Below, one piece after another: positions 2,161 to 56,141 of a DNA stretch of 64,000 nucleotides. The translations under genes and the position numbers were made by a program. Below the pieces are notes generated by a model that was not told the DNA's origin, did not search any database, and worked only from the letters and a program-made list of their open reading frames with translations. The DNA is from a virus (taxonomy: Duplodnaviria > Caudoviricetes): IMG/VR virus record IMGVR_UViG_2931736537_000001, positions 1 through 64,000 of that record. One strand, 5' to 3'. Positions within the stretch are counted from its first letter, which is position 1. The number at the start of each line of letters is the position of its first letter.

Positions 2161-2227
2161 CATCCAGATCACCGAGGGCCGGACGCGAGGTTCGCGTCTG
2201 GCCCTCGCGCCTATGGGCCGTCGGAGG

Positions 2228-2246
2228 GTGATTGCGAGGCAATCAT
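2228..2246. repeat. parS-like palindrome, degenerate distal copy
   Basis: GTGATTGC-GAG-GCAATCAT. Confidence 0.6.
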
Positions 2247-2317
2247 CAGACCCGGGCGCGGCGCCAGTGCACCGCCCGGCACGCCCTCCTACGGTGGGGG
2301 TCTCGCCGGAGGTCAGC

Positions 2318-24247: not shown

Positions 24248-25452
24248 CGGCTGTTCTCCGTCCAGCTCGTGGCCGCGCGCGGGGCCGGGTATTCGTCGTG
24301 GGTGCGGCCGTCCAGTTCGCGGCCTGCGGCCTTCTTGCCGACGCTGTACACCTGGGTGAGGCGGGCCCTGCTGTGCCCGGCGCGCACGGCTTCGCCGTAG
24401 CGGGGGCCGTCCGGGTAGTCCAGGTCGCCGGGGGCGTACAGCGTGCCGTCGTTGGCGATCGTCATGCCCTCGCCTCGTGGTCCGCGCACGAGGCGGCCGT
24501 CGCGGTCGACGGGGGCCTCCGGGCCCCACTGCCCCCACTGTTTGAACAGGAAGGGCACGTCGGATTGGGCGCACTGGTCGCGCAACGTCCGGAACCAGTC
24601 GGGGTGGGCGGGGCGGGCGCCCGGGCCGGACTCGCCGCCGGCGACGACCCAGTCGAGCCGGGGGTCGACCGTCAGCTCCTGGAACACGCGGCCGCGGTCG
24701 TCGGTCTTCTCCGGGCCCCAGCCGGGCCGCCCGGTGAGCCAGTAGGTCAGCTTCGGCCGGCCACGGCCGGGGACGAGGGGCCCGTACAGGTCGATGGGGC
24801 CGAGAAGGGGTTCGGCGCTGATCCAGCGCACGGCGGCCGGGGTGGTCAGCAGGGCGGGGATCCGCATGTCGGCCGTCTTCTGGTCCTCGACCGACACCCC
24901 GAGCCACAAATTCGGCAGGGGCTTGGCGAAGCTGCTCCACCACTTGGTGCGGTGCTGCTCGCGCTCGTACCGCGACAGGCCGGGTGTCGTCTCGTCAGCG
25001 ACGAGGCGGGCCTCGGCCTCCTCGCAGAGCAGTCGGAAGTTTGGGCTGTCCAACAGGGCTCGCATGCGGCCGTGCCGCTTGGTGAGGACCTGGTAGGTGT
25101 GCCGGGGAGTGAGCGCCATGACCGCGAGGATCCGGGCGATCACCTCGTCGGGGACCTGGTCGTGGAACAGGTCGGACTGGGAGTTGACGAAGACCTTCTG
25201 CGGCTTGGTCTTGCGCAGCGGGTCCAGGAGCCGGCTCTCCACGACGTTGACGCGCCCGGTCCAGTCCAGGCGTCCGTCGACGGTGTGCGTGGTGCCGGCG
25301 AATGCCGTGGCCATCTTGGGGCTGGGGTGGTGGGAGCGGATGTGCGCGGTGCGGATGGCGTAGCACCTGTCGCAGCCGCTGGTCACGCGGGTGCAGCCGA
25401 TGATCGGCGACCACGTCATGTCCGTCCACTCGATCGCGCTAAGCGTCGTCAC
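24244..25452 (-). CDS. DUF5131 (phage Gp37/Gp68) family protein
   Basis: IEWTD.TW.PIIGCTRVTSGCDRCYA, FVNSQSDLFH, YQVLTKR, WLGVSVE, SAEPLLG, WVVAGGESG, FLFKQWG. Confidence 0.92.
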   Translation of the reverse strand: MTTLSAIEWTDMTWSPIIGCTRVTSGCDRCYAIRTAHIRSHHPSPKMATAFAGTTHTVDGRLDWTGRVNVVESRLLDPLRKTKPQKVFVNSQSDLFHDQVPDEVIARILAVMALTPRHTYQVLTKRHGRMRALLDSPNFRLLCEEAEARLVADETTPGLSRYEREQHRTKWWSSFAKPLPNLWLGVSVEDQKTADMRIPALLTTPAAVRWISAEPLLGPIDLYGPLVPGRGRPKLTYWLTGRPGWGPEKTDDRGRVFQELTVDPRLDWVVAGGESGPGARPAHPDWFRTLRDQCAQSDVPFLFKQWGQWGPEAPVDRDGRLVRGPRGEGMTIANDGTLYAPGDLDYPDGPRYGEAVRAGHSRARLTQVYSVGKKAAGRELDGRTHDEYPAPRAATSWTENSR

Positions 25453-26149
25453 GTCCGGCTCCTCCTTCGGTGTCCTTGAGGAACGACAGGTCCAGGTCGG
25501 CCTTGGGTCGCCACAGTTGGAGGGCACCGTTGCAGGGCACGGGCTCCTCGAGCGGGCGCAGGTCGGCGAACTCCCAGTGGAAGACCTCGGGGTCGCCCCA
25601 GGGCGTGCAGCAGCCGTTCTTCTCGAAGTGGCAGCCGGCCAGGCGGCCCACCGCGATGACCGCACCAGTGACGAACTCGTCGCGGGCGGGCAGCCCGGGC
25701 AGGGCCCGCACCCGCTCGTCGGTGCGCAGGGCCGCGTAGTGCAGCTCCTTGCCCGCGTGCAGGAGCACGGTGCAGCCGAGGAGCGCGGCCGGCGCGGGCC
25801 AGGTGCGGTTCTCGACGGGCTTGCCGTTCAGCAGCGCCCAGGCGTACGGCTGCTTGACCGTCAGCCCTCGTACGTCCCTGGGCTTCTGGCCGGTGGCCCG
25901 ATGGCTGCACGTGCCGACGAAGCAGGGACGGGCACGCTCGTGCCACTCCTGCTTGGTCAGGCGCTCCAGCGTCCAGCCCTCCGCGGCCTCACGGCGCCGG
26001 TCGGCGATCCGGGGCACGATCTGCTTGTAAGCGTCCTCTGCGAGCGGGCCGGCCTCGTCGACGTAGGTGGAGGACTGGGCGCACCCGGCGGGGTCGAAGC
26101 GGACCCAGTGGTCGGTCCCGGTGTCTGTGGGGGCAGGGTGGCTGCTCAT
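25439..26149 (-). CDS. ASCH-domain protein
   Basis: LTVKQPYAW..GKPVENRTW..LLHAGK..GAVIA..EPVPCNGALQLW. Confidence 0.85.
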   Translation of the reverse strand: MSSHPAPTDTGTDHWVRFDPAGCAQSSTYVDEAGPLAEDAYKQIVPRIADRRREAAEGWTLERLTKQEWHERARPCFVGTCSHRATGQKPRDVRGLTVKQPYAWALLNGKPVENRTWPAPAALLGCTVLLHAGKELHYAALRTDERVRALPGLPARDEFVTGAVIAVGRLAGCHFEKNGCCTPWGDPEVFHWEFADLRPLEEPVPCNGALQLWRPKADLDLSFLKDTEGGAGRDDA

Positions 26150-30639: not shown

Positions 30640-31515
30640 CTACCTGGCCGCCCTCGTGAAACCCATGGCCTTGGCGACGGCGAGGTAGTCGGCGGTGGCT
30701 TCGCCGGCGCGGTCGAAGTACAGCAGGACCTTCTGGTGCGCGTAGCTCTCGGGGATCTTCGTGGACCGGCGGATGCCGAGCTGGCCCTTCGTGCTGCCGG
30801 GCAGCACCAGGTCGCCGTAGGCGTCATGGGCCATGTTCTTGCCGTCGTCCCAGACCGCGCCCTGAGAGCGGTGGGTGGGCACGTCGACCATGAGGACGCC
30901 GGCCAGCTTGGCGTGCGCGCCGTACTCCGCGAAGTCCTCCATGATGGCTTCGATCTTCTGCTCGATGCGGGTGAGCCCGCGCAGTTCCTTGAAGCCGGGC
31001 TTGATGCAGGCGACGACCTCGTCGCTCGCCAGGATCGCGCCGATGACGACGAGGCCGAGGCTTCCGGGGCAGTCGATGATGATGACGTCGTAGTCCCCCT
31101 TGACCTGGTCCAGAAGCCGCTTCAGCCACAGCTCGCGGGCCATGGCCGTGGTGAGGTACTGCTCGGCGTTCTCCATCTCCCCCGAGCCCAGCACCAGGAA
31201 GAGGTTGTCGATGGGCTTCGTGCCCTCGGCGCCGTGCGGGCCGCAGAGCGCCGGCACGATCGCATCCTGGAGCTTCACGCTCTTGTCGGTGAGGCAGTCG
31301 TAGATGGTCTTCTGGCCCTCGAGCTGGTCGGGGAACATGTAGCCGAGCGCAACGGAGGCGTCGCACTGGTCGTCGGCGTCCACGACCAGGACCTTCTGCC
31401 CGAATTCGGCGAGCTGGGCTCCGAGGTTCACGGCCGACGTGCTCTTGCCCGAGCCTCCGACCTGGTTGGTCATCGAGATGATCCGGGGAACGCGCTCTGC
31501 CTGGACGGTCGTCAT
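30640..31515 (-). CDS. parA: ParA-family partition ATPase
   Basis: NQVGGSGKST, VLVVDADDQ, YDVIIIDCPGSLG, C-terminal ADYLAVA. Confidence 0.9.
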   Translation of the reverse strand: MTTVQAERVPRIISMTNQVGGSGKSTSAVNLGAQLAEFGQKVLVVDADDQCDASVALGYMFPDQLEGQKTIYDCLTDKSVKLQDAIVPALCGPHGAEGTKPIDNLFLVLGSGEMENAEQYLTTAMARELWLKRLLDQVKGDYDVIIIDCPGSLGLVVIGAILASDEVVACIKPGFKELRGLTRIEQKIEAIMEDFAEYGAHAKLAGVLMVDVPTHRSQGAVWDDGKNMAHDAYGDLVLPGSTKGQLGIRRSTKIPESYAHQKVLLYFDRAGEATADYLAVAKAMGFTRAAR

Positions 31516-31528
31516 GGAGATCTCCACA

Positions 31529-31695
31529 GTGATTGCCCCGCAATCACGCACGGACCGGCGGGGGAGTGACACCGCAGGGCATGGTCCGGGCGTACGCGTG
31601 GCGGGTGGGTACGGGCCCTGCCGTGCAATCCGCCGGGGCCGGCAGCCAGCGGGCTGGCCGGACGATGGGGGAGTAGGTGATTGCCCCGCAATCAC
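31529..31695. repeat. two parS-like palindromes between parB and parA (31529-31547, 31677-31695)
   Basis: GTGATTGC-CCC-GCAATCAC twice. Confidence 0.85.
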
Positions 31696-31845
31696 CGCGT
31701 GCGCGGGGCCGGCGCGGTGAGAGCGCGGCAGGCACGGCAGGAAGAGGAATGCTGGCCGCACGGTATCGCGCAACACTCCAGAAACGCCAGTCGCCCCGGC
31801 GAAGATTCACTCACCGGGGCGAACGGATAGGCGAAGGAACGGCCG

Positions 31846-33045
31846 TCAGTCGTTCAGGATCAGCTCCTGCAGCTCCTCGAACTCCCTGGGGGAGAGGCGC
31901 TCCTTCAGTCCCGTGTAGATGTCCTTCGGGGTGGTCACTGCGATGACGCCTCGCTCGGCGAGGGTGGCGACCGTTCCCGACGGGCTCTGCTGGCCGGAGC
32001 CACCGGTGCCGGAACCAGTGTCCCGTCCCGCGGGGTTGGTGGTGACCAGCGACGTGTCGGGCTTGGCCTCGCCCTGGCCCTGGTCGGCATCCTGCGTCTT
32101 CTCGAGGTCGGTGCTGCGCTGCCCAGGAACCGAGGAGTCCCCGCCGGCGTCTGACCGGTCGGCATCCGGCTGCGGGTTGCCCTGTCCGGCGTCCCGCTGC
32201 TGGGTGTTGTCCCCGGCCGGCGGCGCTCCCTGCTCCTGGAGGTCGCTGCCCTGCGTCTCGTTGGACTGCGGCGTGCCGGGGAGCTGCTGCTCCTCGAGCG
32301 ACACCTTGCTCTTCACGATGGCCTCGGCCTGCGCCAGGGACAGCTGCCCGTCGACGTACGCCTGCTGCAGGTCCTGACGGAGGCCGGCCAGGACGGTCGC
32401 TGCCTCCTTGATCGGCAGGAGCCGTTCGCCGCCGAACTCGAGCTCCAGGCCCTTCTGCTTGCACCAGTGGTCGATGACCGCCTGCTGGAGCGGCTCGATC
32501 AGCTTCAGCAGCTTGATCTTGTGGGAGATGGCCGTCTGGGAGATGCCTCCGAGCTTCTTCGACAGCTCCCGCTGCGAGATGCCGAGTTCTTCCAGGGCGG
32601 CCTGGTACTCCGCGCCCTCTTCGATCGGGTCGAGGCCGAGACGCTGCTCGTTCTCCTTGATGGCGGACAGTCGCAGCGAGCCGTTCTCCGCGACGGTCTT
32701 CCTCACGAAGACCGGGACTTTCTCCAGGCCCTTCATCTGCGCTGCGGCCAGTCGGCGGTGGCCGTGCAGCACGACATAGGGCTTGCCCGACTTCTCGACG
32801 TAGTCCTGGTGCTGCGGGTAGTGCGTCACGTACGCGGCAGCGGGGACGACGGTGAGCGCTTGGACGACACCGTCGCCGTCGAAGGATTCGGCAAGTCCTT
32901 CGACAGCACGGAGCTTCTTACGTCCGTTCTCCGGGCTGGGCAGGAGGTCCGACACAGGGACCTCGGCGGTTCCCTTACTGAAGAGACGCTGCTGTCCCGC
33001 TGCCTGGCGGGCCTGGTTGAGGCTGAGGTTCGGCATTCCGGCCAT
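31846..33045 (-). CDS. parB: ParB-family partition protein
   Basis: LLPSPENGRK, LAES, HGHRRLAAA, ENEQR..LDPIEE, SQRELSKKLG.SQTAISH (HTH). Confidence 0.9.
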   Translation of the reverse strand: MAGMPNLSLNQARQAAGQQRLFSKGTAEVPVSDLLPSPENGRKKLRAVEGLAESFDGDGVVQALTVVPAAAYVTHYPQHQDYVEKSGKPYVVLHGHRRLAAAQMKGLEKVPVFVRKTVAENGSLRLSAIKENEQRLGLDPIEEGAEYQAALEELGISQRELSKKLGGISQTAISHKIKLLKLIEPLQQAVIDHWCKQKGLELEFGGERLLPIKEAATVLAGLRQDLQQAYVDGQLSLAQAEAIVKSKVSLEEQQLPGTPQSNETQGSDLQEQGAPPAGDNTQQRDAGQGNPQPDADRSDAGGDSSVPGQRSTDLEKTQDADQGQGEAKPDTSLVTTNPAGRDTGSGTGGSGQQSPSGTVATLAERGVIAVTTPKDIYTGLKERLSPREFEELQELILND

Positions 33046-37981: not shown

Positions 37982-39268
37982 TCATGCCGCCAGCCCGAAC
38001 GGCTCGAGGTCCTGGCCGGTGATGAATTCGAAGGCCATCGCCCCGATGTCGCGGGCGATGTTGGGGGTCACGGCCATGCCGACCATGGAGACGAGCTGCT
38101 GGTCGCGCTCCTTCTTCTTCTCCGCGGTCGCCACCAGCTCGTACGTCTCCGGGAAGGACATGGCGACCTTGCGTTCGTCGACCGTCAGCAGCCGGGCATG
38201 CCGGTCGCGGACGTCCTCGGCGGTGCCGTTGACCCACAGGTGGTGGTTGCCGCCTGCGGTCAGCGTCGACAGCGGCCGGCTGGTCGGCCGGTGCGTGGAC
38301 CCGCCACCTCGCAGCTCGGCGATGAACGGGGCACCGCCGTACAGCCGGTGCCCGGCCTGGATCTTCCGCCAGGTGTTCGCGCTGCGCGGGCCGGCGTACC
38401 GGTCGCCGATCAGCGGGCCCGGGTCCGAGTGGTCCAGGATCTCGGCGACCGGCCGCAGCGCGTACGGCTCCAGCGCCACCGTGGCGCAGTGCCGGTGCGG
38501 GCACCGCCAGATGTACTGCGCCCGGTGCTTGCCCCACGGACGCTGCGGCGAGCACGAGTCGGTGGTCTTCCATGCCTGCAGCGCCTGGACCTTGCCGTGC
38601 CGCGCGCACGCCACCATCGGCCGGAGCCACTTGTCGAAGTTCGGCGTACGGCCGACGGACTCGTGCCAGAAGATGACGTACATGCGGTCCCGGCTGCTGT
38701 GTGAGGCCGGCCCGTACGCCGCGGCGTGCGCCGAGTTCGCGTAGACGATGCGGTGGCGGTAGCCCCAGACCCGCATTTGCGCGATCCACGCGTCGAAGGC
38801 GGCGCCCCGGTTGTGCTCCGGTCCCCACCAGCGGGCTTCGACCACGTTCTCGACGACGATGAACAGGTACCCGTGGTGCTCGGCGAACCGCGGGACGCAG
38901 TGCATCGTGGCGCGGGAGCGGATCGCGGTCTCGTCAGTGCCGTTCGTGGAGAACAGCCCGTCGACGAACTCGCCCTGCAGTCGCTTCCTGCCCGCCGCGA
39001 TGGTGTGGAAGGTGCACTCCGGGCTCGACCACATTGCGTGCGTCCGCGGCCAGGCCGACGGAATCACCTGGGACAGGTCCGCCAGGTGCACCCGCACCCT
39101 GGGGTGATTGGCCCGGTAGGTGGCCACGCAGTGAGCGGCGTGGTTGCCGGCCTGGGCGACGACGGTGCCGGGGACCTGTTCCAGGCCGGCGCCCGCCCCG
39201 CCGCCCCCGGCGAACTGGTCGCTCCACGTCACGGCGGCCTGGTCGTGCCACGTCACGGCGTACGGCAT
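37982..39268 (-). CDS. C5-cytosine DNA methyltransferase
   Basis: DQFAGGGG (motif I), SPEC (IV), VENV (VI), SRDRMY (VIII), FP..Y (IX), G.AV (X). Confidence 0.9.
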   Translation of the reverse strand: MPYAVTWHDQAAVTWSDQFAGGGGAGAGLEQVPGTVVAQAGNHAAHCVATYRANHPRVRVHLADLSQVIPSAWPRTHAMWSSPECTFHTIAAGRKRLQGEFVDGLFSTNGTDETAIRSRATMHCVPRFAEHHGYLFIVVENVVEARWWGPEHNRGAAFDAWIAQMRVWGYRHRIVYANSAHAAAYGPASHSSRDRMYVIFWHESVGRTPNFDKWLRPMVACARHGKVQALQAWKTTDSCSPQRPWGKHRAQYIWRCPHRHCATVALEPYALRPVAEILDHSDPGPLIGDRYAGPRSANTWRKIQAGHRLYGGAPFIAELRGGGSTHRPTSRPLSTLTAGGNHHLWVNGTAEDVRDRHARLLTVDERKVAMSFPETYELVATAEKKKERDQQLVSMVGMAVTPNIARDIGAMAFEFITGQDLEPFGLAA

Positions 39269-39296
39269 CAGGCAGCCACCGCCTGCTGCCGGACCA

Positions 39297-40283
39297 TCAC
39301 GCCGCTCCCTGCTGCCGCTGCGCTCGCGCCGCAGCCTTCGCCTCGCGCTGGCTGCGGGCATACGCCGCAGCCAGCCGGTAGGACACGACGTCGCCGAGGG
39401 TGGTCGGGTTACCGGACGGGTCGAGGGCCGCCATCTTCGACGCCCGGCACGCCTGGATCTCACGCGCCAGCTCGGACAGCGCCTCGTACGTCGCCTCACC
39501 GTCGTAGGCCCGGTGGAGGAAGTCGACGCGCGGCGCGCGGTCGACGCCCGTCTCCGCCCAGGTCCTGAGCTGCTTGCCGACTTCGACCGGGTCGGTGAGC
39601 AACTCGTTGCTCAGACCAGGCGCGTTGGACTTCGTGACCCACAGCTCGTGGGTGGGCAGCATCGAACCGGTGAAATCGACTTCGTACTCGAGCCCGTCGC
39701 GGGCTTCCATACGGCCGGCCGCACGGGCTGGCATCGTGCGGCCCTGGGCATCGGTCTCCAAGACGAACTCCACGCGGTTCCGCAGGGTTGCGACGACGTG
39801 TCCGGGAAAGGCGAGTACCGCGTTGACGCTCTGCCGCTCCAAGGGCCGCATCTCCTCCCAGGCGGCGTCCTTGTTCGCGGCTGCGCCCCCACGCATACCG
39901 GTGGCGATCTTGCCGACCTGGTCGCGGATGCCGTCCGGGCCGGCCCAGAACGCCGACCAGCAGTCGAGGACGACGACGTCGTAGGGTGCCGCGGCGTAGA
40001 GCGCCAGGCACAGGTCGCGCGGGGCGAAGGTCTCCATCTCGATCACGTCGAAGGCGACCTGGCCGGCGTACTGCTTCGACTTGCCGCGCTCGGTGTCGAT
40101 GACGGCGATGCTCTCGCCCAGCGCGGAGGCCATGCGCAGGGCGGTGAGGGTGCGGCCCGAGCCGGGCGGCCCGTCCAGCAGGGCCCGGACCGGGCGGGCC
40201 TCCTTCTTGGCGGCGGCGAACTGGAAATGGGTGTGCGGAACCAGGCCGCCCGCAGATGCGGGGGCCTCGGCGGCGGTCGCCAT
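39297..40283 (-). CDS. Sak4/AAA_24-like ATPase
   Basis: GPPGSGRT, IAVIDTER, YDVVVLD, HVVATLR, RDGLEYE.D, TKS. Confidence 0.8.
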   Translation of the reverse strand: MATAAEAPASAGGLVPHTHFQFAAAKKEARPVRALLDGPPGSGRTLTALRMASALGESIAVIDTERGKSKQYAGQVAFDVIEMETFAPRDLCLALYAAAPYDVVVLDCWSAFWAGPDGIRDQVGKIATGMRGGAAANKDAAWEEMRPLERQSVNAVLAFPGHVVATLRNRVEFVLETDAQGRTMPARAAGRMEARDGLEYEVDFTGSMLPTHELWVTKSNAPGLSNELLTDPVEVGKQLRTWAETGVDRAPRVDFLHRAYDGEATYEALSELAREIQACRASKMAALDPSGNPTTLGDVVSYRLAAAYARSQREAKAAARAQRQQGAA

Positions 40284-46742: not shown

Positions 46743-47128
46743 CCGACGAACTCGCCGAGCGGCGAAGCAGCGCCCGGGCGGCCCACCGCCGGCCGGGCCG
46801 GGGCGCCGCGCCGACGCCGCCTGCCGAACCGCCCCGCTGGGTACGGACCTTCGTCATCCCCCGGGACGCCTGCGAGCCGTGCGCCCGGCACCACCACCAC
46901 CGCTGCCACGGCGTCGACGTCCTCCTGGACCCCATCCCCGACTGCCCGTGCGACTGTGGCGACCCGCGCAACCCGCTGCTCCTCAACGCCCGGGCCTGGG
47001 CCGACCTCGCCCTGTACGCCCCTGACCAGGTGTGGGTGGCCGCCATGTTCGAGCGGCAGCGCGCCGCCGGCATCCACCAGTGCACCTGGCGCAACGACGA
47101 CAGTGGCCTGCGGGCTGCCAAAGGGTGA
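46739..47128 (+). CDS. Cys/His-rich hypothetical protein
   Basis: GTGA overlap; CEPC..HHHHRC..CPCDC. Confidence 0.6.
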   Translation: MTDELAERRSSARAAHRRPGRGAAPTPPAEPPRWVRTFVIPRDACEPCARHHHHRCHGVDVLLDPIPDCPCDCGDPRNPLLLNARAWADLALYAPDQVWVAAMFERQRAAGIHQCTWRNDDSGLRAAKG

Positions 47129-47500
47129 AGATCGGTCTCCTGGGCAGCGTTCATGTGCCAGCATGGGCTCGTGCAGTCGAAACGATCGCGTGTCCGCAAG
47201 AGCCGGGGCCAGACGGCCCTGTTGCTGCGCGCATTGATCGTTCTGGCGCTGGACATGTTCCTGGGCGTGGGGGCAGCGGGGGGCCGTCGAGGCCTTGGGG
47301 GGCACGCTTGGGGCACCTGGTCGCAGATGGCGAGGGTGTTTTTGTGGCCAGCACTTCGGCTTCAGAACTGAGAGTTCCTTCCCGAGCCCTTGAGGGCCTC
47401 CGGAGGAACCCGTGCGCATGCGGGACGCTGCGCTCATCGACGAGCTGAAATCGCGGGTTTCCCTCTTCTGCTCACCTCAGACGAGAGAGATCCATCAGGC

Positions 47501-47704
47501 ATGTCTCAGCAGAACCCGGCACAGCGCGGCGAGAACGAACCTCTGAACCGTGACGAGCGGACGCCGGCAGCGGCGCCGCAGGCCGACGCTGTCCCGAGGG
47601 CAGCTCTCGTTGGCGCGGTCAAGGGAACGATGATCGGCCTCGGAACCAAGGCCGGGAAGTGGCTCTGGGAGAAGGGCGTGGAGCTGAAGGACCACTGGCA
47701 GTGA
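47501..47704 (+). CDS. small hypothetical protein
   Basis: Amphipathic C-terminus; weak RBS. Confidence 0.45.
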   Translation: MSQQNPAQRGENEPLNRDERTPAAAPQADAVPRAALVGAVKGTMIGLGTKAGKWLWEKGVELKDHWQ

Positions 47705-47768
47705 GTTGTACGCCGGTGACCTTGCAGGCTTCTGATCTGCGGGTTTGGGCTCAACGGACTTCCATCTA

Positions 47769-47789
47769 TGCAACGTAGCGTTGTAATGT
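47769..47789 (+). promoter_or_regulatory. 17-bp palindromic operator (second family) overlapping -10 TAATGT
   Basis: TGCAACG-TAG-CGTTGTA at 47769-47785. Confidence 0.6.
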
Positions 47790-47841
47790 GGGGGGTGTTG
47801 GCGGGGACGGTCCCCGCCACACACCACGGAGGGAGCCCCCC

Positions 47842-48345
47842 ATGGCCACCACGACGGACACCGCCTACACCACCGGCGACATCGTCAAGGGCCGCCCCCT
47901 GAAGGAGGGCGTACCGCAGCCGGTCCGGAAGGGCATCGTCCTCCGCCTTTACGGCAACGACGCCTCGAGCGGCTACCTCGTCTGGTGGTACGGCAAGGGC
48001 CCCGCCTCCATGAAGACCGTCTCCTTGATGTTCGGCCGCGAACTCCGCCGCGCCGGCGTCCTCGAGGACCTGTCCCTGCGGCTGATCACCACCATCGAAC
48101 GCGGCGCCGCGACCTTCAACGACGCCCTGCCGATCGCCTACAAGGCCGGGAACCTCCGCCTTCGCAGGCGGCGCTTCCGCATCCAGGACGTCCCCGCCGA
48201 CTGGTCCCCGGCCCACCGCTGCTGCCTTGAGTGCGGCAACACCGAGCCCCAGGTACGGCTGAAGGCCATCACCCACACCGGAACCTCCCAGCAGGCCCTC
48301 GCCTGCGACCGGCACGCCGACCAGGTCGGCGCCGCCCTGGGCTGA
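47842..48345 (+). CDS. hypothetical protein with SH3-like N-terminus and C-terminal CxxC...CxxH
   Basis: GGAGGGAG RBS; GDIV...GIV...GYLVWW; hairpin after the stop. Confidence 0.7.
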   Translation: MATTTDTAYTTGDIVKGRPLKEGVPQPVRKGIVLRLYGNDASSGYLVWWYGKGPASMKTVSLMFGRELRRAGVLEDLSLRLITTIERGAATFNDALPIAYKAGNLRLRRRRFRIQDVPADWSPAHRCCLECGNTEPQVRLKAITHTGTSQQALACDRHADQVGAALG

Positions 48346-48469
48346 CCTCCAGCCCCAGTAGCCCCCGCTCGCGCGCGGGGCTACGGCTCCTTCAGCACCT
48401 GGGCGATGCGGCACGTCTATGGTGCGGCCTATTCACCCCGTGCGGCCCATCCGGCTGCCACCGAGCCGA

Positions 48470-49831
48470 TCAGGCTGGCCTCTCCACGGTCTGCGACAGC
48501 AGGTAGTGCTGCACCGCCTCGACGACGTGCTCGGGGTGCCCGCCGACGCGCTGCCCAGGTTGCAGAGGCCGGTCGGCGACCGCCGACCACCCGCCGGCCT
48601 CGTCAGCGACCTTGCTGAACAGCCAGGCCAGGTTCGCGGCAACCTCCACGTACACGTCCGGGCCCGTCACCCAGCCCTGCACGACCCGCACGAGTTCCGA
48701 GACCGCGGCCTCGTCGAACCGGGTCTTCTTCTCCGCCAGGTCCACGCCGACGTTCCACGCCAGGCGCACCATGTCCTCCGACTCCCACGAGCCCTCCCGG
48801 CCGGCCATCATCCGGTAGCGAGCTCCGCCCTCCCGCCCGGCGCCCGCGTCCTCGAGCACGAGCCGGTACAACGCCACCAGCAGCGACCCCGCCGCCTTCC
48901 GACCGGCACCGACCAGAGCCGCCTTCACCGCGGCGCAGTCCTCATCCGTCGGCGGCACCACCGGGCGCAGCGGCCCCCGGGTCAGTTCCAGCATGGTGAA
49001 GTCCAGCGTCTCCAGCTCACGCCGGTGCCCACCGTCCGCGTCGAACGTCCCATCCCCGCTGCGCAGGTACCAGCCCTGGTAGAACCGGTCGACGACGCGG
49101 TACGGCCGCCGACTGCTGGAGCTGGTCTTCGCGGCGCCCCCGCGCGCGTTGGGAACCATCTCCGGCAGGTCCTGGCCGGCCGCCTCGCCTTGCGGCTCCC
49201 GTACGGCAGCCGCCAGTTCGGTCCGGCGTGCAGCGACCAGCGGAGCCCACCCGGCGGGCATCTCCGCGTGCTCGCCACCTGTGTGCGCAACGAACTGGGC
49301 TCCGTTGTACAGGGCCAGCGCCTTCTCGTTGTCGAGCGGCATGGCGACGGGGTGACCTTCGACCGGGACCGGGTACTGCTCGAGGACCCAGGCTTTGCCG
49401 GCGTCGTAGAAGTCGGTGACGACCGCTTCCCACTCTCCCGCACGAGCCCACGGGCGAACCGCCCAGGCGTTGACGAGCAGCATCGCGCCGACGTGCCCCG
49501 GCAGTTGCTGCTCCGGCTCCCAGCCCTGCGGCAGGACGACGACGTCGGCCCGGCCCTCATACTCCTCGCCGGTCTTCTCTCGGCGCAGCGTGTGCAGCTG
49601 GTCAGCGAGGGCCTGGACGAAGGCGTGCCGGTCGAGGGCGGCCGGCACGGTGCAGGCGAACACGAACGGCACGACGTGCAGCTCCATGGGCGGGGCTGTG
49701 GGGTCGGCCGACTTCTGCGACGCGGAGGCGCCGCCGTCCAACGTGTGACTGGCCTGGGTGTAGCGCCTCTCGCGGTTCTCGCCCTGGGCGGCACGGATGG
49801 CGCGGGTACGGGCGCGGGAGTCCTTCGGCAT
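48470..49831 (-). CDS. multi-domain hypothetical protein with short basic N-terminal motif
   Basis: AGGAG RBS; MPKDSRARTRAIRAAQGENRERRYTQA. Confidence 0.8.
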   Translation of the reverse strand: MPKDSRARTRAIRAAQGENRERRYTQASHTLDGGASASQKSADPTAPPMELHVVPFVFACTVPAALDRHAFVQALADQLHTLRREKTGEEYEGRADVVVLPQGWEPEQQLPGHVGAMLLVNAWAVRPWARAGEWEAVVTDFYDAGKAWVLEQYPVPVEGHPVAMPLDNEKALALYNGAQFVAHTGGEHAEMPAGWAPLVAARRTELAAAVREPQGEAAGQDLPEMVPNARGGAAKTSSSSRRPYRVVDRFYQGWYLRSGDGTFDADGGHRRELETLDFTMLELTRGPLRPVVPPTDEDCAAVKAALVGAGRKAAGSLLVALYRLVLEDAGAGREGGARYRMMAGREGSWESEDMVRLAWNVGVDLAEKKTRFDEAAVSELVRVVQGWVTGPDVYVEVAANLAWLFSKVADEAGGWSAVADRPLQPGQRVGGHPEHVVEAVQHYLLSQTVERPA

Positions 49832-49992
49832 CGGAACACTCCTGGTTCACGGCATGCCCCACGCGCACGCCGCACAGTCAAGAGTGGGGCGATGCAGGCC
49901 GCACGAGGAGTCGGAGACGTCTTGTCCGGCTGTGGGATCCCGGGCGTGGGCCGGCTCCCTCACGGAGTCTGGCGGTCGTGCACCGCCGCGGC
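49832..49992 (-). ncRNA. candidate cis-regulatory leader RNA, copy A
   Basis: CCCACGCC..CGGACAAG..GCCCCAC..GCGTGGGG..RBS; -10 TAGAGT at 49997-50002. Confidence 0.5.
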
Positions 49993-50036
49993 TCCGACTC
50001 TAGCGGACCGGCCTGCCCTCCCACAGTGCGTCTGGG

Positions 50037-50312
50037 TCACCGCGTGCGGGGCGCTCCGGGGTAGCCGACCGCGTCCGCGTACCGGGAGGCCTCGTTCACC
50101 AGCCAGGCCAGCTGCCTCCCCGCGGCCGCCACGTCGCCGTCTTCCAGCTTGGCCATCCCGTACCCGTAGGAGTACCCGGCCATCCGGCTCAGGACCGGGT
50201 CGAGCTTCTCCGTGCTGATGTCCCGCAGGAACCCGAACCACGTCTCGAGGTCAACGCGCAGCGCCTCGACGCTACGGTCCCGGCCTGCCGGTATGTCGTC
50301 GCTCTTGGTCAT
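50037..50312 (-). CDS. small hypothetical protein
   Basis: Normal composition. Confidence 0.6.
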   Translation of the reverse strand: MTKSDDIPAGRDRSVEALRVDLETWFGFLRDISTEKLDPVLSRMAGYSYGYGMAKLEDGDVAAAGRQLAWLVNEASRYADAVGYPGAPRTR

Positions 50313-50342
50313 CCGCCGAGGGTAGATCGCGCCCCGGACGCT

Positions 50343-50978
50343 TCACACACTGGCCGGTGTCCCGGGCAACCGGTGGCCCGGTACCCACCACGCCGGCGGC
50401 TGCGGGGCGTCGTCCTCCCACTGGTACAGGGTGAGGTCGTCCTGGTGCTCGTCGGAGTGGCCACGCCACCGCGTGCAGTACTGGCGCCCGTCGCCGGGGG
50501 CGACGTACATGGACGGGCACCGGTTCTTCCCCTGGAAGCGGACCCGCAGCTCGTCGGGGTAGGTCGTGGCTGGCTCCACGGTCCAGTCCGCGGCCTCCAG
50601 CGTGGTGACGAGGATGCGCACCGCCTCCACCGCAGGCTGGGGCTCCAGCCGTACGCAGCCGCCGCGGCTGACGTCCTGCCCGAGCGACGTGCTCGAGATG
50701 GTGTACGGGTACTTGCGCAGGGCCCGGTCGGTGAGGTCCCACATCCATTCGCGCGTCTCCACGAGGAAGTACCCGGTGCGCCGCTCGACTCCGGCGCGCG
50801 TGGGGAACTCGTGCAGCCGGTTGACGTCGACCTCCCGCTCACGGCGGCCGGTGGCTGCGTCCGCGATGCGTACCCGCTTCCCGCCCGGGCGCACGATCCG
50901 CACGTACCGGGTCACCGCGTCCTCGGGCTGCCCGCACGGCGCGTACACCTGGCCGCGCTTGAGGTGACAACTCTCCAC
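50343..50978 (-). CDS. hypothetical protein
   Basis: GGGAG RBS; C...C....GH...H motif. Confidence 0.65.
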   Translation of the reverse strand: MESCHLKRGQVYAPCGQPEDAVTRYVRIVRPGGKRVRIADAATGRREREVDVNRLHEFPTRAGVERRTGYFLVETREWMWDLTDRALRKYPYTISSTSLGQDVSRGGCVRLEPQPAVEAVRILVTTLEAADWTVEPATTYPDELRVRFQGKNRCPSMYVAPGDGRQYCTRWRGHSDEHQDDLTLYQWEDDAPQPPAWWVPGHRLPGTPASV

Positions 50979-51056
50979 GGCAACTCCCGGGCTCGCCTGG
51001 CGACCCGACGACTCTATCCCCGCCCGGTCCAGCCCACCGGCCCAACGCCGGACCGG

Positions 51057-51611
51057 TCAGAAGCTCGCGGCCGGCATCCCCCCGGACGGCCACACGCAGC
51101 CCTCGCAGCGATCGTTCCGGTCGTGCCCGGCCACCTCCCAGTGCGCCTGCTTCAGCGCCCAGAAGGCCGCCCGGTACGTTTCCCGCGCGCGCAGGCACCA
51201 CTCCCGTTCCACGGCGTTGAGATGCGACCAGCACGCCTGCAGGCCGTCGACCTCGACGAAGCCCTCCGGCCACTCCGCGGCCTGTCGGGTACAGGGCCTG
51301 CCGTCCTCCCGGGCCCGGGTACACAGCGGCTTCTCGGTGCCGAGCCGGGCGCCCCACGGCGGGCTGGTGAACCGCACCCAGTCCGCCGGCAGCGTCCGGA
51401 CGACGCCTGGCGGCGGCAGCCGCACGTCCAGGTGTAGGCGCCCGCGGACGGCCCGCTGCCCGGCAGGCTCGGTGTCGATCGGGACCCCGGTCGACGCCCA
51501 CGACCCGGCCAGCCGCTCAGCGATGGCCTGCAGCGTGGCAGCGTCGCCGGCCACGATGTCCACCACGGCCAGCCCGGGCTCCGCCACGAGGGCGCGGTTG
51601 ATGTCTCCCAT
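51057..51611 (-). CDS. DUF6207-like domain plus Cys-rich domain
   Basis: EPGLAVVDIVAGD..T.......L...WAS.G...R..LDVR. Confidence 0.65.
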   Translation of the reverse strand: MGDINRALVAEPGLAVVDIVAGDAATLQAIAERLAGSWASTGVPIDTEPAGQRAVRGRLHLDVRLPPPGVVRTLPADWVRFTSPPWGARLGTEKPLCTRAREDGRPCTRQAAEWPEGFVEVDGLQACWSHLNAVEREWCLRARETYRAAFWALKQAHWEVAGHDRNDRCEGCVWPSGGMPAASF

Positions 51612-51799
51612 GCCGATGGGGACCGCGTCCGCCGGGCGGTAGTTGCGCAGCGGCGATCAGTTCACTCTGCCGGATGACGTCCCGCCTGAAGCTGCCTAGC
51701 CCAGGGATCCACTCCGAATCCCCCGGTACCAGGCCGGAACAGTGTCGTCCGCCCATAGCCTGGTCGGGGAACAACGAACGTCACGAGGGAGCACACCGG

Positions 51800-52387
51800 G
51801 TGGACTGGATCGTCACTGCTACCCAACAGACCGCCTCGAGTAGCAGTCCCGTCTGGCTGTCGGCTCTGCTCGGTGGTGTCGGCGCGATGCTGGGAGGCTC
51901 GATCACCTCTGTGGTGGCCTGGCGTGTCCTGTCCGACACGAAGTCGGCCAGGCGGCGTGCCGAAGAGCGCGAGGCGTCAGCGGCCATCAGCGCCGCCCTC
52001 CTGAAGGTCCGCCAGAAGTACAAGAATGACGGCATGGGCACCGACCGGCTCCCGGAGGGGTTCGACACCTGGCCCGACTACTTCCACTCGCTCCTTGGCG
52101 AAGCGGAAGTCGCTGTCCTGACCTTCACCGACAGGGGTCTACGGGACCGCCTCACCGGCTCCCTCGATCTGCTGATCTGGGGCGCCCACGATGACCAGCT
52201 ACTTCACGAGAGCCGCCTGAGCTTTCCACGCGTGGTGGCGTACGCGGCGTACAACGATGCCCTTGCGTGCCTCGGCGCCAACCTCCGCAACGAGCCGCTG
52301 CCCAACCCCACAGACACTTGGACTACGGCGCACCGCCAGCTGCAGTGGCAGGAGGAGCAGGTACGGCGGGCAGAAGCAGGAGAGTAG
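51800..52387 (+). CDS. membrane-anchored hypothetical protein
   Basis: GAGGGAG RBS; TM segment WLSALLGGVGAMLGG. Confidence 0.65.
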   Translation: MDWIVTATQQTASSSSPVWLSALLGGVGAMLGGSITSVVAWRVLSDTKSARRRAEEREASAAISAALLKVRQKYKNDGMGTDRLPEGFDTWPDYFHSLLGEAEVAVLTFTDRGLRDRLTGSLDLLIWGAHDDQLLHESRLSFPRVVAYAAYNDALACLGANLRNEPLPNPTDTWTTAHRQLQWQEEQVRRAEAGE

Positions 52388-52589
52388 CCGCAGCACCACT
52401 GTGCCGTCCGCAACGCTAAGGCGATCGCCCGGCTGCGGACGGCCCTGGCCCGAGCAGTCCGGCCGGCCCCGCCGCTCTCGTACGGCCTCGGGGCACGTCC
52501 TAATCATCCCACCGGGCAACGGGCCGTCAGCGGGCGACCGTCGATGCGGTCCGTACCCGGTTGTCGGCGGCAGCCGGTACCGTAGTGAC

Positions 52590-52771
52590 CACGGCATGAC
52601 GCGAACCGCCGTTTCCGCTGCCGCCCCAGCGCCCACGCCGCACCGGGGCAGCGCCGTCGGACAAGGACCGCACCAGGGTCCCGCGCAGCACCACCTGAAG
52701 CACCCGTCCGTCCGGCTGCGCCCCTCACGCGACGTCCGGCGGGAAGCGTGGGGTCCCGCATGGAGACGACC
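52590..52771 (+). ncRNA. candidate cis-regulatory leader RNA, copy B
   Basis: CCCACGCC (52632), CGGACAAG (52658), CCCCTCACGC (52721), GCGTGGGG (52746), GGAG RBS. Confidence 0.5.
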
Positions 52772-53335
52772 GTGACCAAAGCAGGCAGCGACTACCTCAA
52801 GAACCAGGCCCGCGAGATCCGCAGGACCACAGGCCGGCGGCTCCCCGACATCCTCGCCGAGCTGCGCGCCCCCCGCCGGGCGCCGTCCAAGGAACTCGTC
52901 CCGCTGTGCAAGGGCTTCGCACACCCCATCGACGGAGGGCGCTGCGCCCAGGTGGCCGGCCACCCGGGCCACTGGACGTGGTGCGGGTCAGAACCGCACT
53001 TCGCCGCGCACGTCTGGCAGGGCTACGTCGAGGCCCGGGACGCCGCCGAGCACGCCAAGCACGAGGCGTGGCTGGCCTCCCTGACCGCCAAGGAACGCAC
53101 GGAGTACGAGGCCGAGCAAGAGGCCGCGCACTGGGCGCAGATGGCCGAAGACGCCCGCGAGCCGTACGACCCGGACGAGGAGAGGGCCATCGAATTCGCG
53201 CTCGACGCAGCCGACGAGGAACGCTGGGAGGCGCAGCGGGAGGCGGAGATGACCGAGCGGGCCGACGACGACGGCTACGTCGACCTCACCGATGACGAGT
53301 ACTACGGGTACTTCGCCGACGAGGACCCCCGATGA
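52772..53335 (+). CDS. protein with basic N-terminal motif and very acidic C-terminus
   Basis: GTG after GGAG; LKNQAREIRRTTGRRLPDILAEL. Confidence 0.7.
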   Translation: MTKAGSDYLKNQAREIRRTTGRRLPDILAELRAPRRAPSKELVPLCKGFAHPIDGGRCAQVAGHPGHWTWCGSEPHFAAHVWQGYVEARDAAEHAKHEAWLASLTAKERTEYEAEQEAAHWAQMAEDAREPYDPDEERAIEFALDAADEERWEAQREAEMTERADDDGYVDLTDDEYYGYFADEDPR

Positions 53336-53856
53336 CCAGGTACTGGTCGGTCGTGCAGCACCGCGCCGCCGAGTACTCCCTCGCGCAGCAGCAGCCCGGC
53401 GCCTCCCTGCTGGCCGGCCTGCCGGTGATGGCCGCGCACGCCGCCGCCTTCTCGGCTTTCCACACCCTGCACGTGGCGCAGTTCTGCCTGGCCGTCATCG
53501 TGTCCGAGGACTGCCCCGACCACCTGCGCGGACCGGCGGGCGTCCCGGACCTGGCCCGCCTGGTGCCCGCCGACACCGACGCCCTCACCGTGCTGGCCAC
53601 CGCCGAGGACCAGCGGGCCCTGTTCGGCTCGGGGCTCGCCGAGGAGCTGCGCAACGTGGAGGACCAGGTGGCGGCGACGGGCCGCGCCCGGGCGGCAGTC
53701 CAGCGCGTGCTGGACCAGGTCCCGCACGGGCTCGCCGGCCGCCAGCGGATGCTGGACATCGTCTACGAGCTCCGGGACGACCCGCGGGGCATCTCCGCGT
53801 TCCTCGCCCTGACCGCCGTGGCGCTGCGCGAGGTCGCGGTCCCCTCGCCCGGATGA
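53332..53856 (+). CDS. hypothetical protein
   Basis: ATGA overlap. Confidence 0.65.
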   Translation: MTRYWSVVQHRAAEYSLAQQQPGASLLAGLPVMAAHAAAFSAFHTLHVAQFCLAVIVSEDCPDHLRGPAGVPDLARLVPADTDALTVLATAEDQRALFGSGLAEELRNVEDQVAATGRARAAVQRVLDQVPHGLAGRQRMLDIVYELRDDPRGISAFLALTAVALREVAVPSPG

Positions 53857-53885
53857 CGGGCACCGCCCGCCGGCACCGGGCCCCG

Positions 53886-54170
53886 TCAGGAGGGCTGCGC
53901 GCCCTCGGCAGGCCCGGTGCGGACGACCGATGCCATGAAGCCGAGGCCGGAAGGACGCCAGGCGTCCGCGCCGGTGGGGCCGAGAGCGAAGCCCGCCTCG
54001 GCGAGACGGCGGCCTGCCGCCTCCTGCTGGAAACCCTCCCACTCCGGGAGGTCCACCGTGGCCTGGACGGCGAGGTCCTCGTCGAGGACGTTGAGCTGGT
54101 AGCCGTGCTCGACCCGGCCGTCATCGTGCGGGTGGCTGTTCGGCGTACAGACGGCCATGAGACCGGACAT
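53886..54170 (-). CDS. small hypothetical protein
   Basis: AGGAGG RBS. Confidence 0.6.
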   Translation of the reverse strand: MSGLMAVCTPNSHPHDDGRVEHGYQLNVLDEDLAVQATVDLPEWEGFQQEAAGRRLAEAGFALGPTGADAWRPSGLGFMASVVRTGPAEGAQPS

Positions 54171-54260
54171 GGGGACCTCCTGGGGGTTCACAGCGGCCGG
54201 AGCGGTTCGGGATCCGGCCGCGCCCCATCGTGCCGTACAGGGCTGACAGCCGGGGCGGGT

Positions 54261-54521
54261 TCAGGACGCGGGCACGACCGTCGGGCCCGCGATCCGCATC
54301 CGGGCGCCGTCGTACTGCACGACCTCGCCGGGCAGGATGAGCAGGCCCGCTTCTCCGTCGCGCCAGGCCTCCCCGATCCGGCGCACCTGGACCGCGGGCC
54401 CGCTGGCGCCGGCCATGAAGACCGTGGGGTCGATCTCCCAGCCGTGACCGGCCAACCACTGCTCCAGAGCGAGGGAGTCCCCGGTGCTCGCACCCCGCGG
54501 CCACTCGAACGTACTCGTCAC
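54261..54521 (-). CDS. small hypothetical protein
   Basis: AAGGGGA RBS. Confidence 0.55.
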   Translation of the reverse strand: MTSTFEWPRGASTGDSLALEQWLAGHGWEIDPTVFMAGASGPAVQVRRIGEAWRDGEAGLLILPGEVVQYDGARMRIAGPTVVPAS

Positions 54522-54723
54522 GCCAATCCCCCTTCGACCGTGCACTCCGTGGACCCGATCCTGCCACCGCCCACTGACACCCCACCGGCCGGCGACCGCA
54601 CGCCGGGAAACAGTGTGCCTGCGAAGCACAGGCGGAGCGTGGCGGCCCCGCCCTCTTCCGTAGGCGTGGCCGCGGGTGCCAAGCCTTGGAAACACAGGAA
54701 CGGGCGCCGGGTCGATGCTGGCT

Positions 54724-54975
54724 TCACAGCTCCCGGTGGATCACCTCGACGCCGTCGGCCCACGTCCGCACCGGCTCCCGTTCCTCGCCGGCGTCCACCT
54801 CGAGCGTGACGGTCACCCCGCGGACGCTGCCGTGCGTCCCGACCAGCGCCCGGAACTTGCGCAGGGCCACCTCGCCGTCGGCCCAGGTCCCCTCGATCGC
54901 CGGGCCGCCCTTGCGGAACGTCATCCGTACGTGGAAGTCCCCGCCGTCGGAGGGCTCGGCGGGCGGGGTACTCAC
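54724..54975 (-). CDS. small hypothetical protein coupled to the recombinase
   Basis: GTGA overlap with the recombinase stop. Confidence 0.55.
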   Translation of the reverse strand: MSTPPAEPSDGGDFHVRMTFRKGGPAIEGTWADGEVALRKFRALVGTHGSVRGVTVTLEVDAGEEREPVRTWADGVEVIHREL

Positions 54976-56141
54976 TGCTGCTCCGCGGCGCGCTGCTTCT
55001 CGCTCACCTTGTGCCAGGGGTTCTCCGCCCGGCTCTGCGCCCGGTCGAGGTACTCCTTCTTCACCGTGGCGCTGCCCGGCTTCCACCGGCCCTGCTTCGT
55101 CGGGTCGCCGCCGGCGTCCGCGATCTCCTGGGCGCCGCCGCGTCGCAGGCCGTGCGCGGTGATGTCCTGCCAGTTGGGCAGGTCGGCGGCGTAGGCCATG
55201 CCCCGGATCCAGTCGTTGACGGCGTCGCCGGTGACGAAGTCGCCCCGGACCGTGGCGGTGGCCCGGGACTGCAGCGTCCCGGCGACCGTCAGGGCCCGCA
55301 GCACCGGCCCCGAGTCGACGCCGAGCCGGTGCAGGCAGTTCAGCCAGTCCCGGGTGGCCTGCACCGGGTCGTACAGGCCCTCGTCGCCGGCGGAGGGCAC
55401 CCAGGTGTCCTCACCGTGGGCATCCTGGTCGGTCTTGGAGTAGGCGACCCACTGGGCCACGCCGCCGTCCTCGACGGTCAGGTCCTCGATCGTCAGGTCG
55501 GCCAGTTCGATCCGCCGGTTGAGGGCCTTGCGGCCGACGACCACCACGAACCGGTTCCGCAGCCCGATGGGGTGGCGCAGGTCGCAGGTGTCGACCATCG
55601 CCCGGGCCATCGCGGCCGTGATGGCCGGCGCCTTACGGACCCGGTTCCGCTTCAGCCACTGCTTGCGGTACTCGCGCAGCAGGCCGCGGGCCTTGCTGGT
55701 GCCGGGCTTCTTGTCGTCGGGCATCCACGTCCGCACGGCCGACAGGTACGTGCTGATCGTGTTCGGGCTCATGCCCCGGGCGATCAGGTGCGCGCAGTAC
55801 TCCACGTACGTCGCCGTCGTGCAGGGCCGCGCGACCCGGCCCATCCCGTCGCACCACTCTTCGAACAGCTTGCGCTGGTTCTTGTAGTTGCGGTCCGTGT
55901 TGGCCGGCGCCGACTCTTCCTCCAGGCGCCGGGCGGTCTCCTCGGACACCTCGAAGTCCCGGCGGGTGTACCGCGGGGCGGTGGCCTCGCTCGGCAGGGC
56001 CTCGCCGGGGTAGAGGATTGTGTGCTGGTCGACGGGCGGCTTGGCGGGCGCGGCCGGAAGTGGCACGGACGGCAGGACTTCGTCGTCGTCGACCAGCTCG
56101 GCGTCGACGACCTCGGTGGGCTCGAGTTCGGACGTGGTCAT
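54972..56141 (-). CDS. Cre-like tyrosine recombinase (putative multimer resolvase)
   Basis: ANT.R.Y...F..WC N-domain; GLRNR...RRIEL, SKTDQ, HGLRRGGA, GRW, EY (R-K-H-R-W-Y catalytic set). Confidence 0.9.
   Translation of the reverse strand: MTTSELEPTEVVDAELVDDDEVLPSVPLPAAPAKPPVDQHTILYPGEALPSEATAPRYTRRDFEVSEETARRLEEESAPANTDRNYKNQRKLFEEWCDGMGRVARPCTTATYVEYCAHLIARGMSPNTISTYLSAVRTWMPDDKKPGTSKARGLLREYRKQWLKRNRVRKAPAITAAMARAMVDTCDLRHPIGLRNRFVVVVGRKALNRRIELADLTIEDLTVEDGGVAQWVAYSKTDQDAHGEDTWVPSAGDEGLYDPVQATRDWLNCLHRLGVDSGPVLRALTVAGTLQSRATATVRGDFVTGDAVNDWIRGMAYAADLPNWQDITAHGLRRGGAQEIADAGGDPTKQGRWKPGSATVKKEYLDRAQSRAENPWHKVSEKQRAAEQQ

Follow-up and report, generated by a model that had tools for sequence, protein, structure and literature searches.

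Two genes of a virally labelled DNA record carry members of an apparently new structured 5' leader RNA family and a basic N-terminal motif

The analysed window comprises the first 64 kb (positions 1 to 64,000) of the record IMGVR_UViG_2931736537_000001, which is 141,694 bp long, has a G+C content of 71.7% and is classified as viral by IMG/VR. Two genes of the window, gene A on the minus strand and gene B on the plus strand, are each preceded by a leader, and in both cases the leader is followed directly by an open reading frame (ORF) that opens with a basic motif. Proteins A and B had no match in Pfam, NCBIfam or PHROGs, and relatives of both genes were found on Streptomyces plasmids; the halves of gene A also occur separately, on other plasmids. 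The GTG used here as the start of gene B is the start annotated in three homologues. Leaders A and B belong to one family of structured 5' untranslated regions (UTRs) of roughly 150-190 nucleotides (nt), which is apparently new. The module of leader and N-terminal tag is real, and it is apparently new as well. The coordinates of the main features are collected in Table 1.

Table 1. Features of the window. R1 and R2, covariance models; A3, A6 and A8, leader alignments; P1-P5, hairpins; PK1, long-range pairing; RBS, ribosome-binding site; aa, amino acids.
Feature	Position	Strand	Detail	Basis
Gene A	48470-49831	-	453 aa, two-part body	
Gene A motif coding region	49733-49831	-	MPKDSRARTRAIRAAQGENRERRYTQASHTLDG	hhalign
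Gene A RBS	49839-49843	-	AGGAG, 8 nt before ATG	read from sequence
Leader A	49832-49989	-	divergent member of the family	R1, R2
P5, leader A	49850-49872	-	CGGCGUG/CAUGCCG, loop GCGUGGG 49858-49864	read from sequences; also constrained single-sequence folding and A8
P2, leader A	49925-49966	-	UCCG/CGGA outer, GGGA/UCCC inner, apex CCCACGCC 49943-49950	read from sequences
P1, leader A	49971-49987	-	GGCGG/CCGCC	read from sequences
PK1, leader A	49976-49981 with 49901-49906	-	P1 loop GCACGA with UCGUGC, 6 bp, differs from consensus CGCG:CGCG	
-10-like TAGAGT, leader A	49997-50002	-	7 nt upstream of leader	read from sequence, family pattern
Promoter-like stretch, leader B	52561-52588	+	TTGTCG ... 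TACCGT/TAGTGA	read from sequence
Leader B	52591-52771	+	structured 5' UTR	R1, R2, conservation
P1, leader B	52591-52612	+	52591-52595 with 52608-52612	changes on both sides in 5/5 pairs
PK1, leader B	52600-52603 with 52682-52685	+	P1 loop CGCG with segment after P3	
P2, leader B	52614-52661	+	long hairpin; outer 52614-52617 with 52658-52661; apical loop CCCACGCC 52632-52639	
Junction CAAG, leader B	52662-52665	+	conserved, unpaired; second half of CGGACAAG	near-invariant columns, A3 and A6
P3, leader B	52665-52681	+	GGACC/GGUCC	both-side changes in 4/5 pairs
P5, leader B	52739-52759	+	loop with GCGUGGG 52746-52752	covarying pairs 7/7
Extra complementarity, leader B	52654-52662 with 52735-52743	+	3' strand of P2a and junction to 5' strand of P5	
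Gene B RBS	52762-52765	+	GGAG, 6 nt before GTG 52772	read from sequence
Gene B	52772-53335	+	187 aa, Cys/His-rich middle and acidic tail	
Gene B motif coding region	52772-52870	+	VTKAGSDYLKNQAREIRRTTGRRLPDILAELR	AlphaFold2, hhalign
CCCACGCC	52632-52639; 49943-49950	+; reverse complement	leaders B and A	
CGGACAAG	52658-52665; 49921-49928	+; reverse complement	leaders B and A	
GCGTGGGG	52746-52753; 49857-49864	+; reverse complement	leaders B and A	
Plasmid-like genes	2213-3268, 24244-25665, 30640-33045, 37982-39499, 54972-56141			

The four 8-mers listed for both leaders in the first-pass annotation of the window were all present at their positions and on the proper strands. The direct likeness of leader A to leader B is not above chance, and the case for their relationship rests on the relatives. 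The number of 8-mers common to the two leaders was 5, with a mean of 5.4 in 2,939 random window pairs, and a collinear chain of at least three 8-mers was obtained in 796 of these pairs (27%). In the pairwise MAFFT alignment only the proximal GCGTGGGG was aligned and the distal motifs were left unaligned. Leaders A and B were the only places on either strand of the full record with CCCACGCC..CGGMCAAG..GYGTGGG in this order, and a peptide pattern was likewise restricted to genes A and B. Three of the four shared elements correspond to near-invariant blocks of the leader family elsewhere.

Leader B (about 185 nt) was 80-87% identical in four plasmid homologues, the proteins of which were just 44-61% identical. 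The homologous B leaders differed by 1- and 2-nt insertions and deletions, and as these are not multiples of 3, leader B is noncoding. An upstream ORF at 52257-52775, overlapping gene B by GTGA, was ruled out by the same differences. The blastn search with leader B resulted in intergenic matches on six more Streptomyces plasmids, all in the same orientation and each just upstream of a different gene, and the genes behind those six leaders begin with the same kind of peptide, e.g. MSPKKQSTAARKARAEARQGAKFTAALR and MTKNGSNARKARIRTHASKTGATYRQAAQAL. Gene A has a homologue of full length on a further plasmid, and this one shares the leader blocks and opens with MTRDRKRKLKIRAEMAALGLSYDEAA.

The covariance model R1 was built from 12 leaders, none of which was an A-type sequence. 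Leader B scored 136.3 bits with R1, and leader A 20.1 bits with an expect value (E) of about 0.01, which is marginal and was the best non-self match in the window (the next reached 17.4 bits). The second model, R2, was seeded with 8 close leaders of the L010 type, neither A- nor B-type sequences being included; these were taken instead of the MAFFT seed alignment A6, in which the helices were misaligned. In the search of 351,329 bases, R2 gave 56.9 bits (E 1.7e-12) for leader B and 31.0 bits (E 6.9e-6) for leader A, and its 53 matches at E <= 0.05 were all family-like in appearance. The matches of R2 in the full record were leader B, leader A (E 2.8e-6) and one weak 15-bit match without the peptide. 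Thus, both leaders of the window were recovered as members of one family by a model, R2, that contained neither of their subtypes.

When one genome per species was scanned for the pattern, at least 120 stretches were obtained, and among the 80 loci viewed there were 35 R1 matches at E <= 0.1. The hosts among the matches listed were Streptomyces, Nocardia, Nonomuraea, Streptosporangium and metagenome-assembled genomes of actinomycetes, and R1 leader matches occurred in 7 of the 61 sampled Streptomyces genomes. The family resides mainly on plasmids and other accessory DNA of actinomycetes. Much of the leader-bearing DNA is plasmid (the L007 locus, for example, sits on the S. clavuligerus megaplasmid), and two leader copies per plasmid, located before different genes, are frequent. 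With an L010-type leader as the query, blastn matched 33 plasmid records and none of the 50,697 phage records searched. Since the window also has a plasmid-like gene content (ParA, ParB, ATP-dependent DNA ligase, C5 cytosine methylase, DUF5131 and tyrosine recombinase), the virally labelled record may be a plasmid or a phage-plasmid. Two B-type genes were frame-shifted yet had a largely intact leader, and two loci were leader remnants without an ORF (L006 1324-1503, L007 1500-1684, L151, L152).

The first-pass annotation had not recognised the leader as a named riboswitch, and the searches agreed with that. The cmscan of positions 47000-55000 against Rfam 15 with E up to 10 resulted in nothing in either leader, and for five further members with E up to 1 just sub-threshold microRNA-like hairpins were obtained elsewhere in them. 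No description of the leader RNA or the motif was present in the titles and abstract openings that the literature searches returned.

The structure of the leader was derived by reading 39 non-redundant sequences. The predicted fold consists of hairpins P1, P2 and P3, a variable region, hairpin P5 and two long-range pairings, PK1 and PK2, and ends a few bases before the RBS. The alignment A8, containing 53 sequences including the two decayed genes and some remnants, was fitted to P1-P5 and not to PK1 and PK2. In A8, 91.4% of the cells were paired compared with 78.8% after shuffling, and none of the 500 shuffles reached 91.4%. Changes on both sides were detected in 26 of the 38 pairs, and the covariation score was 0.317 compared with 0.121 for shuffled alignments and at most 0.059 when the partners were slid. 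The G-U pairs were frequent and are compatible with the sense RNA only, therefore, the structure was placed on the sense strand. Covarying pairs were found in P2a (2/4) and P2b (5/5), whereas the apex of P2 was invariant in most members; the P3 helix occurred in other members as GGUCU/GGGCC or GGAUC/GAUCC. CGGACAAG, described earlier as an element of its own, was divided by the fold into CGGA, which forms the 3' side of P2a, and the conserved unpaired junction CAAG.

According to these assignments, leader B could form all of P1, P2, P3, P5, PK1 and PK2. Leader A could form P1, P2a, P2b, P5, a 6-bp PK1 and a 7-bp PK2, its P3 being just 3 bp long. In a crude comparison of cognate and non-cognate duplex energies, for which 36 of 40 sequences had usable anchors, p was <= 0.0002 for P5 and P3, 0.01 for P2 and 0.065 for P1. 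The constrained minimum free energy folds of single sequences were noisy in the G+C-rich leader RNA. A local apical stem GGCG/CGCC in P2 was rejected as no better than shuffles. Two pairings suggested by RNAalifold from MAFFT alignments, CCCGCG:CGUGGG and a helix CCCACGC:GCGUGGG of nested type, were superseded by P5 and the kissing loops after the inspection of the 39 sequences. An extra complementarity of 8-9 nt, e.g. CCGCCGGAC with GUCCGGCGG, was observed in the B-type leaders, L031, L035 and L158; this pairing of P2a and the junction to P5 could be an alternative one.

Neither PK1 nor PK2 was part of the model that produced A8. In PK1, 3 of the 4 pairs had changes on both sides and 94% of the cells in A8 were paired. 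PK2 is a kissing interaction between CCCACGCC at the apex of P2 and GGCGUGGG in the loop of P5. This pairing is invariant in most members and has compensatory variants in five, which were read by eye and two of which were misaligned by the model: CCCACGUC:GACGUGGG in L155, GCCACGCC:GGCGUGGC in L154, CUCACGC:GCGUGAG in L178, CCCACGCU:AGCGUGGG in L172, and in L168 an entire swap for CCGCGA:UCGCGG. The pairing of GCGTGGG with the distal CCCACGC, as suggested initially, is borne out by these changes. The suggestion that GCGTGGG pairs alternatively with a shared proximal GCCCC(T)CAC segment, giving a switch, did not extend to the family. Leaders A and B both contain the proximal complement, yet it was seen in only 6 of 38 members, the shuffled mean being 8.8, and a conserved switch with mutually exclusive expression-platform pairing was not found across these 38 members. 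A loop-loop (kissing) tertiary contact inside one fold is the better reading of the distal pairing.

A TAnnnT hexamer ending 1-19 nt upstream of the model match was present in 39 of 40 members, the distance being 7 nt for leader B. This indicates that the conserved RNA begins about at the likely transcription start, i.e. that the start implied by the TAnnnT -10 box is likely the 5' end of the leader RNA.

The N-terminal motif of about 33 residues consists roughly of M-[PT]-K, a basic helix in which one Arg is near-invariant, a turn at Gly and [YF]-[TP]-x-A-[LA]-R, and is followed by unrelated sequence. The AlphaFold2 model of the gene B product had a helix at residues 3-20, a turn and a second helix at residues 24-32 (predicted local distance difference test value about 84), then a disordered linker, and contained no beta strand. 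According to this prediction, the motif is a basic helical hairpin that stands by itself at the end of the disordered linker. The earlier claim that A and B open with a similar basic motif held by way of the family: the direct hhalign comparison of the two N-termini was weak (21%, E 1e-3), whereas the A-type and B-type N-termini matched the other 31 family N-termini with 97% (E 4.2e-11) and 93% (E 2.4e-7), respectively. With weak direct matches and strong profile matches, A and B are joined via intermediates for RNA and peptide alike.

A blind peptide hidden Markov model gave 10.2 bits for gene A (winA), which is weak, and 1.0 bit for gene B (winB), so B was missed. Together with the chance-level k-mer counts and the weak direct similarity of the peptides, this would suit a functionless, accidental likeness of the leaders in G+C-rich DNA. 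Such an explanation is already contradicted by the recovery of both leaders with blind covariance models (R2 in particular), the uniqueness of the motif combination in the record, the covariation and the hhalign profile matches that tie each N-terminus to the family, and it is considered extremely improbable.

The searches of the motif against Pfam, NCBIfam and PHROGs were negative, and the ESM Atlas search returned generic helical matches only. In the profile search of PDB nothing was significant; the best match was the helix-turn-helix part of the DNA-binding antitoxin VapB30 (E 0.63). For a ribbon-helix-helix domain, there was neither a significant match nor an N-terminal strand in the AlphaFold2 monomer. 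N-terminal DNA-binding autorepressors are common on plasmids, and the VapB30 match, though not significant, points in the same direction, i.e. that the region works as DNA and the motif, as a small ribbon-helix-helix-like or helix-turn-helix domain, binds operators between the promoter and the start codon and represses its own transcription. We regard this as improbable. The strand-specific covariation disfavours it, as the helices are preserved on one strand by compensatory changes and by G-U pairs. What is conserved is a stretch of about 170 nt behind the -10 box and not a set of short repeated operators, and the leader alignments showed neither direct nor inverted operator repeats. Furthermore, the model lacks a beta strand, and its second helix is only about 9 residues long.

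Beyond the motif, protein B has a conserved and poorly modelled Cys/His cluster at about residues 46-71, and a confident three-helix region at residues 77-164; its C-terminal tail is rich in Tyr and very acidic. At 52809-52825 on the minus strand, antisense within the motif-coding part of gene B, there is a hairpin that resembles a terminator and has a T-rich tail.

The association of leader and motif was determined in both directions. Out of 55 R1 matches with at least 20 bits, 50 are directly followed by an ORF that opens with the motif; the remaining five comprised two genes in decay, two remnants of leaders and a match that is probably false. The bodies of 48 modules fell into 22 unrelated BLASTP clusters. 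One body is a WD40 propeller; the downstream genes also include nitrilase and BtrH-like bodies, and most are without a family. The cluster of the gene A body holds both A-type and L010-type subtypes of leader and tag (gene A compared with L050). In five shorter homologues of the gene A body (L015-L019), which do not have the motif at the N-terminus, the leader motifs were absent too. These results corroborate the view that leader and motif move as a unit before unrelated cargo. The products of L015-L019 are homologous to the first half of protein A and stand alone; their genes lie on five plasmids beside DUF6545 and MAB_1171c-family transporter genes.

The peptide profile had matches in 36 of 121 Streptomyces genomes, and the reverse check, from peptide to leader, covered 30 loci among those matches. 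An adjacent R2 leader at E < 0.01 was present at 10 loci, a weak R2 match in the right place at 3 and leader blocks seen by eye at another 3. Three loci were nitrilase-family genes with a variant leader and three were chromosomal genes with just a short hairpin over the RBS, while 2 were unclear, 5 were probably false peptide matches and 1 lay at a contig end. The dependence is therefore one-way: there is no intact leader without the peptide, yet the peptide occurs without this leader. The chromosomal cases (L179 1156-1623(-), L182 and L183 1501-1971(+)) are conserved Streptomyces proteins with the opening MTTNRGRKDVIRDRMAATGESYNVAARNL and a leader of about 45 nt, in which a CCUCCUGG..CCAGGAGG hairpin covers the RBS. 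The motif-bearing nitrilase-family (carbon-nitrogen hydrolase) proteins (L163 1501-2532(+), L171 583-1590(-) and L175) have a variant leader with ..CCUCC..GGAGGCAAAGGGAC.. that was missed by R2.

The one-way dependence is the pattern expected of an operator and its binding domain. Together with the basic isolated hairpin and the position of the leader beside the RBS, it makes an operator bound by the N-terminus of its own product the best-fitting explanation. The folded leader would act as a translational operator, the N-terminal motif of the fresh protein would bind it at the kissing-loop core or at the CAAG junction, and translation would thereby be limited by each cargo protein itself, for which ribosomal proteins and lambda N, acting on their leaders, are the precedents. 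By analogy to such systems, we propose autogenous translational control tentatively, at somewhat less than an even chance. Several points weigh against it. The RBS, as read from the sequences, is not consistently paired in a helix across members, so it is not obvious how binding would keep the ribosome away. Chromosomal enzymes with other leaders also begin with the peptide, which thus has some function of its own, and the best solved-structure match of the peptide, the non-significant one to VapB30, is a DNA-binding protein. That leader and peptide are inherited together could be due to nothing more than a recombination unit. As for the fold itself, A8 was fitted to the proposed helices and favours them, and in the duplex-energy test PK1 was unsupported (p 0.86) and PK2 just marginal (p 0.054).

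It is nearly as likely as the autogenous operator, though doubtful when taken alone, that the leader senses another ligand, such as a small molecule, a plasmid or host protein or a small RNA, and co-ordinates accessory plasmid genes. The tag would then serve separately in nucleic-acid binding, localisation or delivery and be co-exchanged as a 5' cassette with the promoter. The complex pseudoknotted fold with its invariant unpaired bases (P1 loop, CAAG and both kissing loops) resembles a riboswitch aptamer. The two copies before different genes of many plasmids, the different leader-and-tag subtypes within one body family and the occurrence of the tag without the leader are also in accordance with such a sensor. 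However, the downstream genes have no common function hinting at a ligand, and if the tag were irrelevant, some intact leaders would be expected before untagged genes, whereas 0 of 50 were found.

The motif is always at the extreme N-terminus, its length corresponds to about that of the exit tunnel plus a few residues, and a flexible linker follows it. Mobile elements favour cis-acting proteins. Accordingly, one may imagine a co-translational action in which the basic hairpin, as it emerges, takes hold of the leader of its own mRNA and either tethers the product to this template or slows early elongation, serving cis-action or localisation and not feedback. This is purely speculative, no result separates the tethering from feedback control, and the bodies include ordinary enzymes with no obvious use for cis-action; we give it little credence.

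Returning to autogenous control, its broader form would be a portable self-regulating cassette, in which a putative RNA-binding hairpin of about 33 residues and a kissing-loop operator, mobile among actinomycete plasmids, give autogenous control or cis-tethering to any fused cargo. This is possible, but we would sooner doubt it than rely on it. If true, the transferable unit of operator and binding domain would give mobile DNA a new means of setting the dose of accessory genes that are unrelated, and it would be an off-the-shelf expression-control part for Streptomyces. If the fold is confirmed, a large and well-covarying double-pseudoknot RNA class is added to the actinomycetes, the plasmid biology of which is poorly charted. 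The strict pairing of the RNA with a protein tag and not with a gene function is unusual, and it flags about two dozen plasmid protein families without a known family as one regulon-like set.

Compared with known systems, the closest general parallel is provided by the autogenous translational operators of ribosomal protein leaders (S15) and phage T4 gene 32, each of which is tied to one protein family. As in those systems, a structured and often pseudoknotted 5' leader is located beside the RBS and would be bound by the encoded protein. In contrast, one operator-like RNA and one small domain stand here before at least 22 unrelated bodies, and the binding is putative. In lambda N and P22 N, an arginine-rich N-terminal peptide binds boxB, a hairpin in the leader of the same gene (nutL). 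Both cases combine a short, basic and helical peptide at the extreme N-terminus with an RNA target, putative here, in the leader of the same transcript. However, boxB is a 15-nt hairpin acting in antitermination, whereas the present fold has several helices in about 170 nt and shows no sequence likeness to boxB, and the L010-type query matched none of the phage records.

Rop/Rom of ColE1 is a free-standing 63-residue dimer, a helical hairpin that binds the RNA kissing-loop complexes of an antisense pair. The combination of a helix-turn-helix hairpin protein with a loop-loop RNA contact on a plasmid is alike by description only; the hairpin of about 33 residues is here fused to cargo and the kissing loops lie inside one RNA. 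In repA/repZ of the IncB/IncI-alpha plasmids, translation is activated by a pseudoknot under the control of an antisense RNA, and a hairpin loop of the plasmid leader pairs with a distal sequence near the RBS as in the leaders studied here. The downstream genes are here many and diverse instead of a replication gene, and the host phylum is different. A consensus scan, based on the E. coli-type consensus that is weak for Streptomyces, detected no antisense promoter or terminator within either leader. In size, pseudoknotted architecture, invariant junction bases and position in the 5' UTR, the family resembles the riboswitches and orphan candidates in Rfam, and it differs from them in having no Rfam match and in being associated with a protein tag rather than with a pathway.

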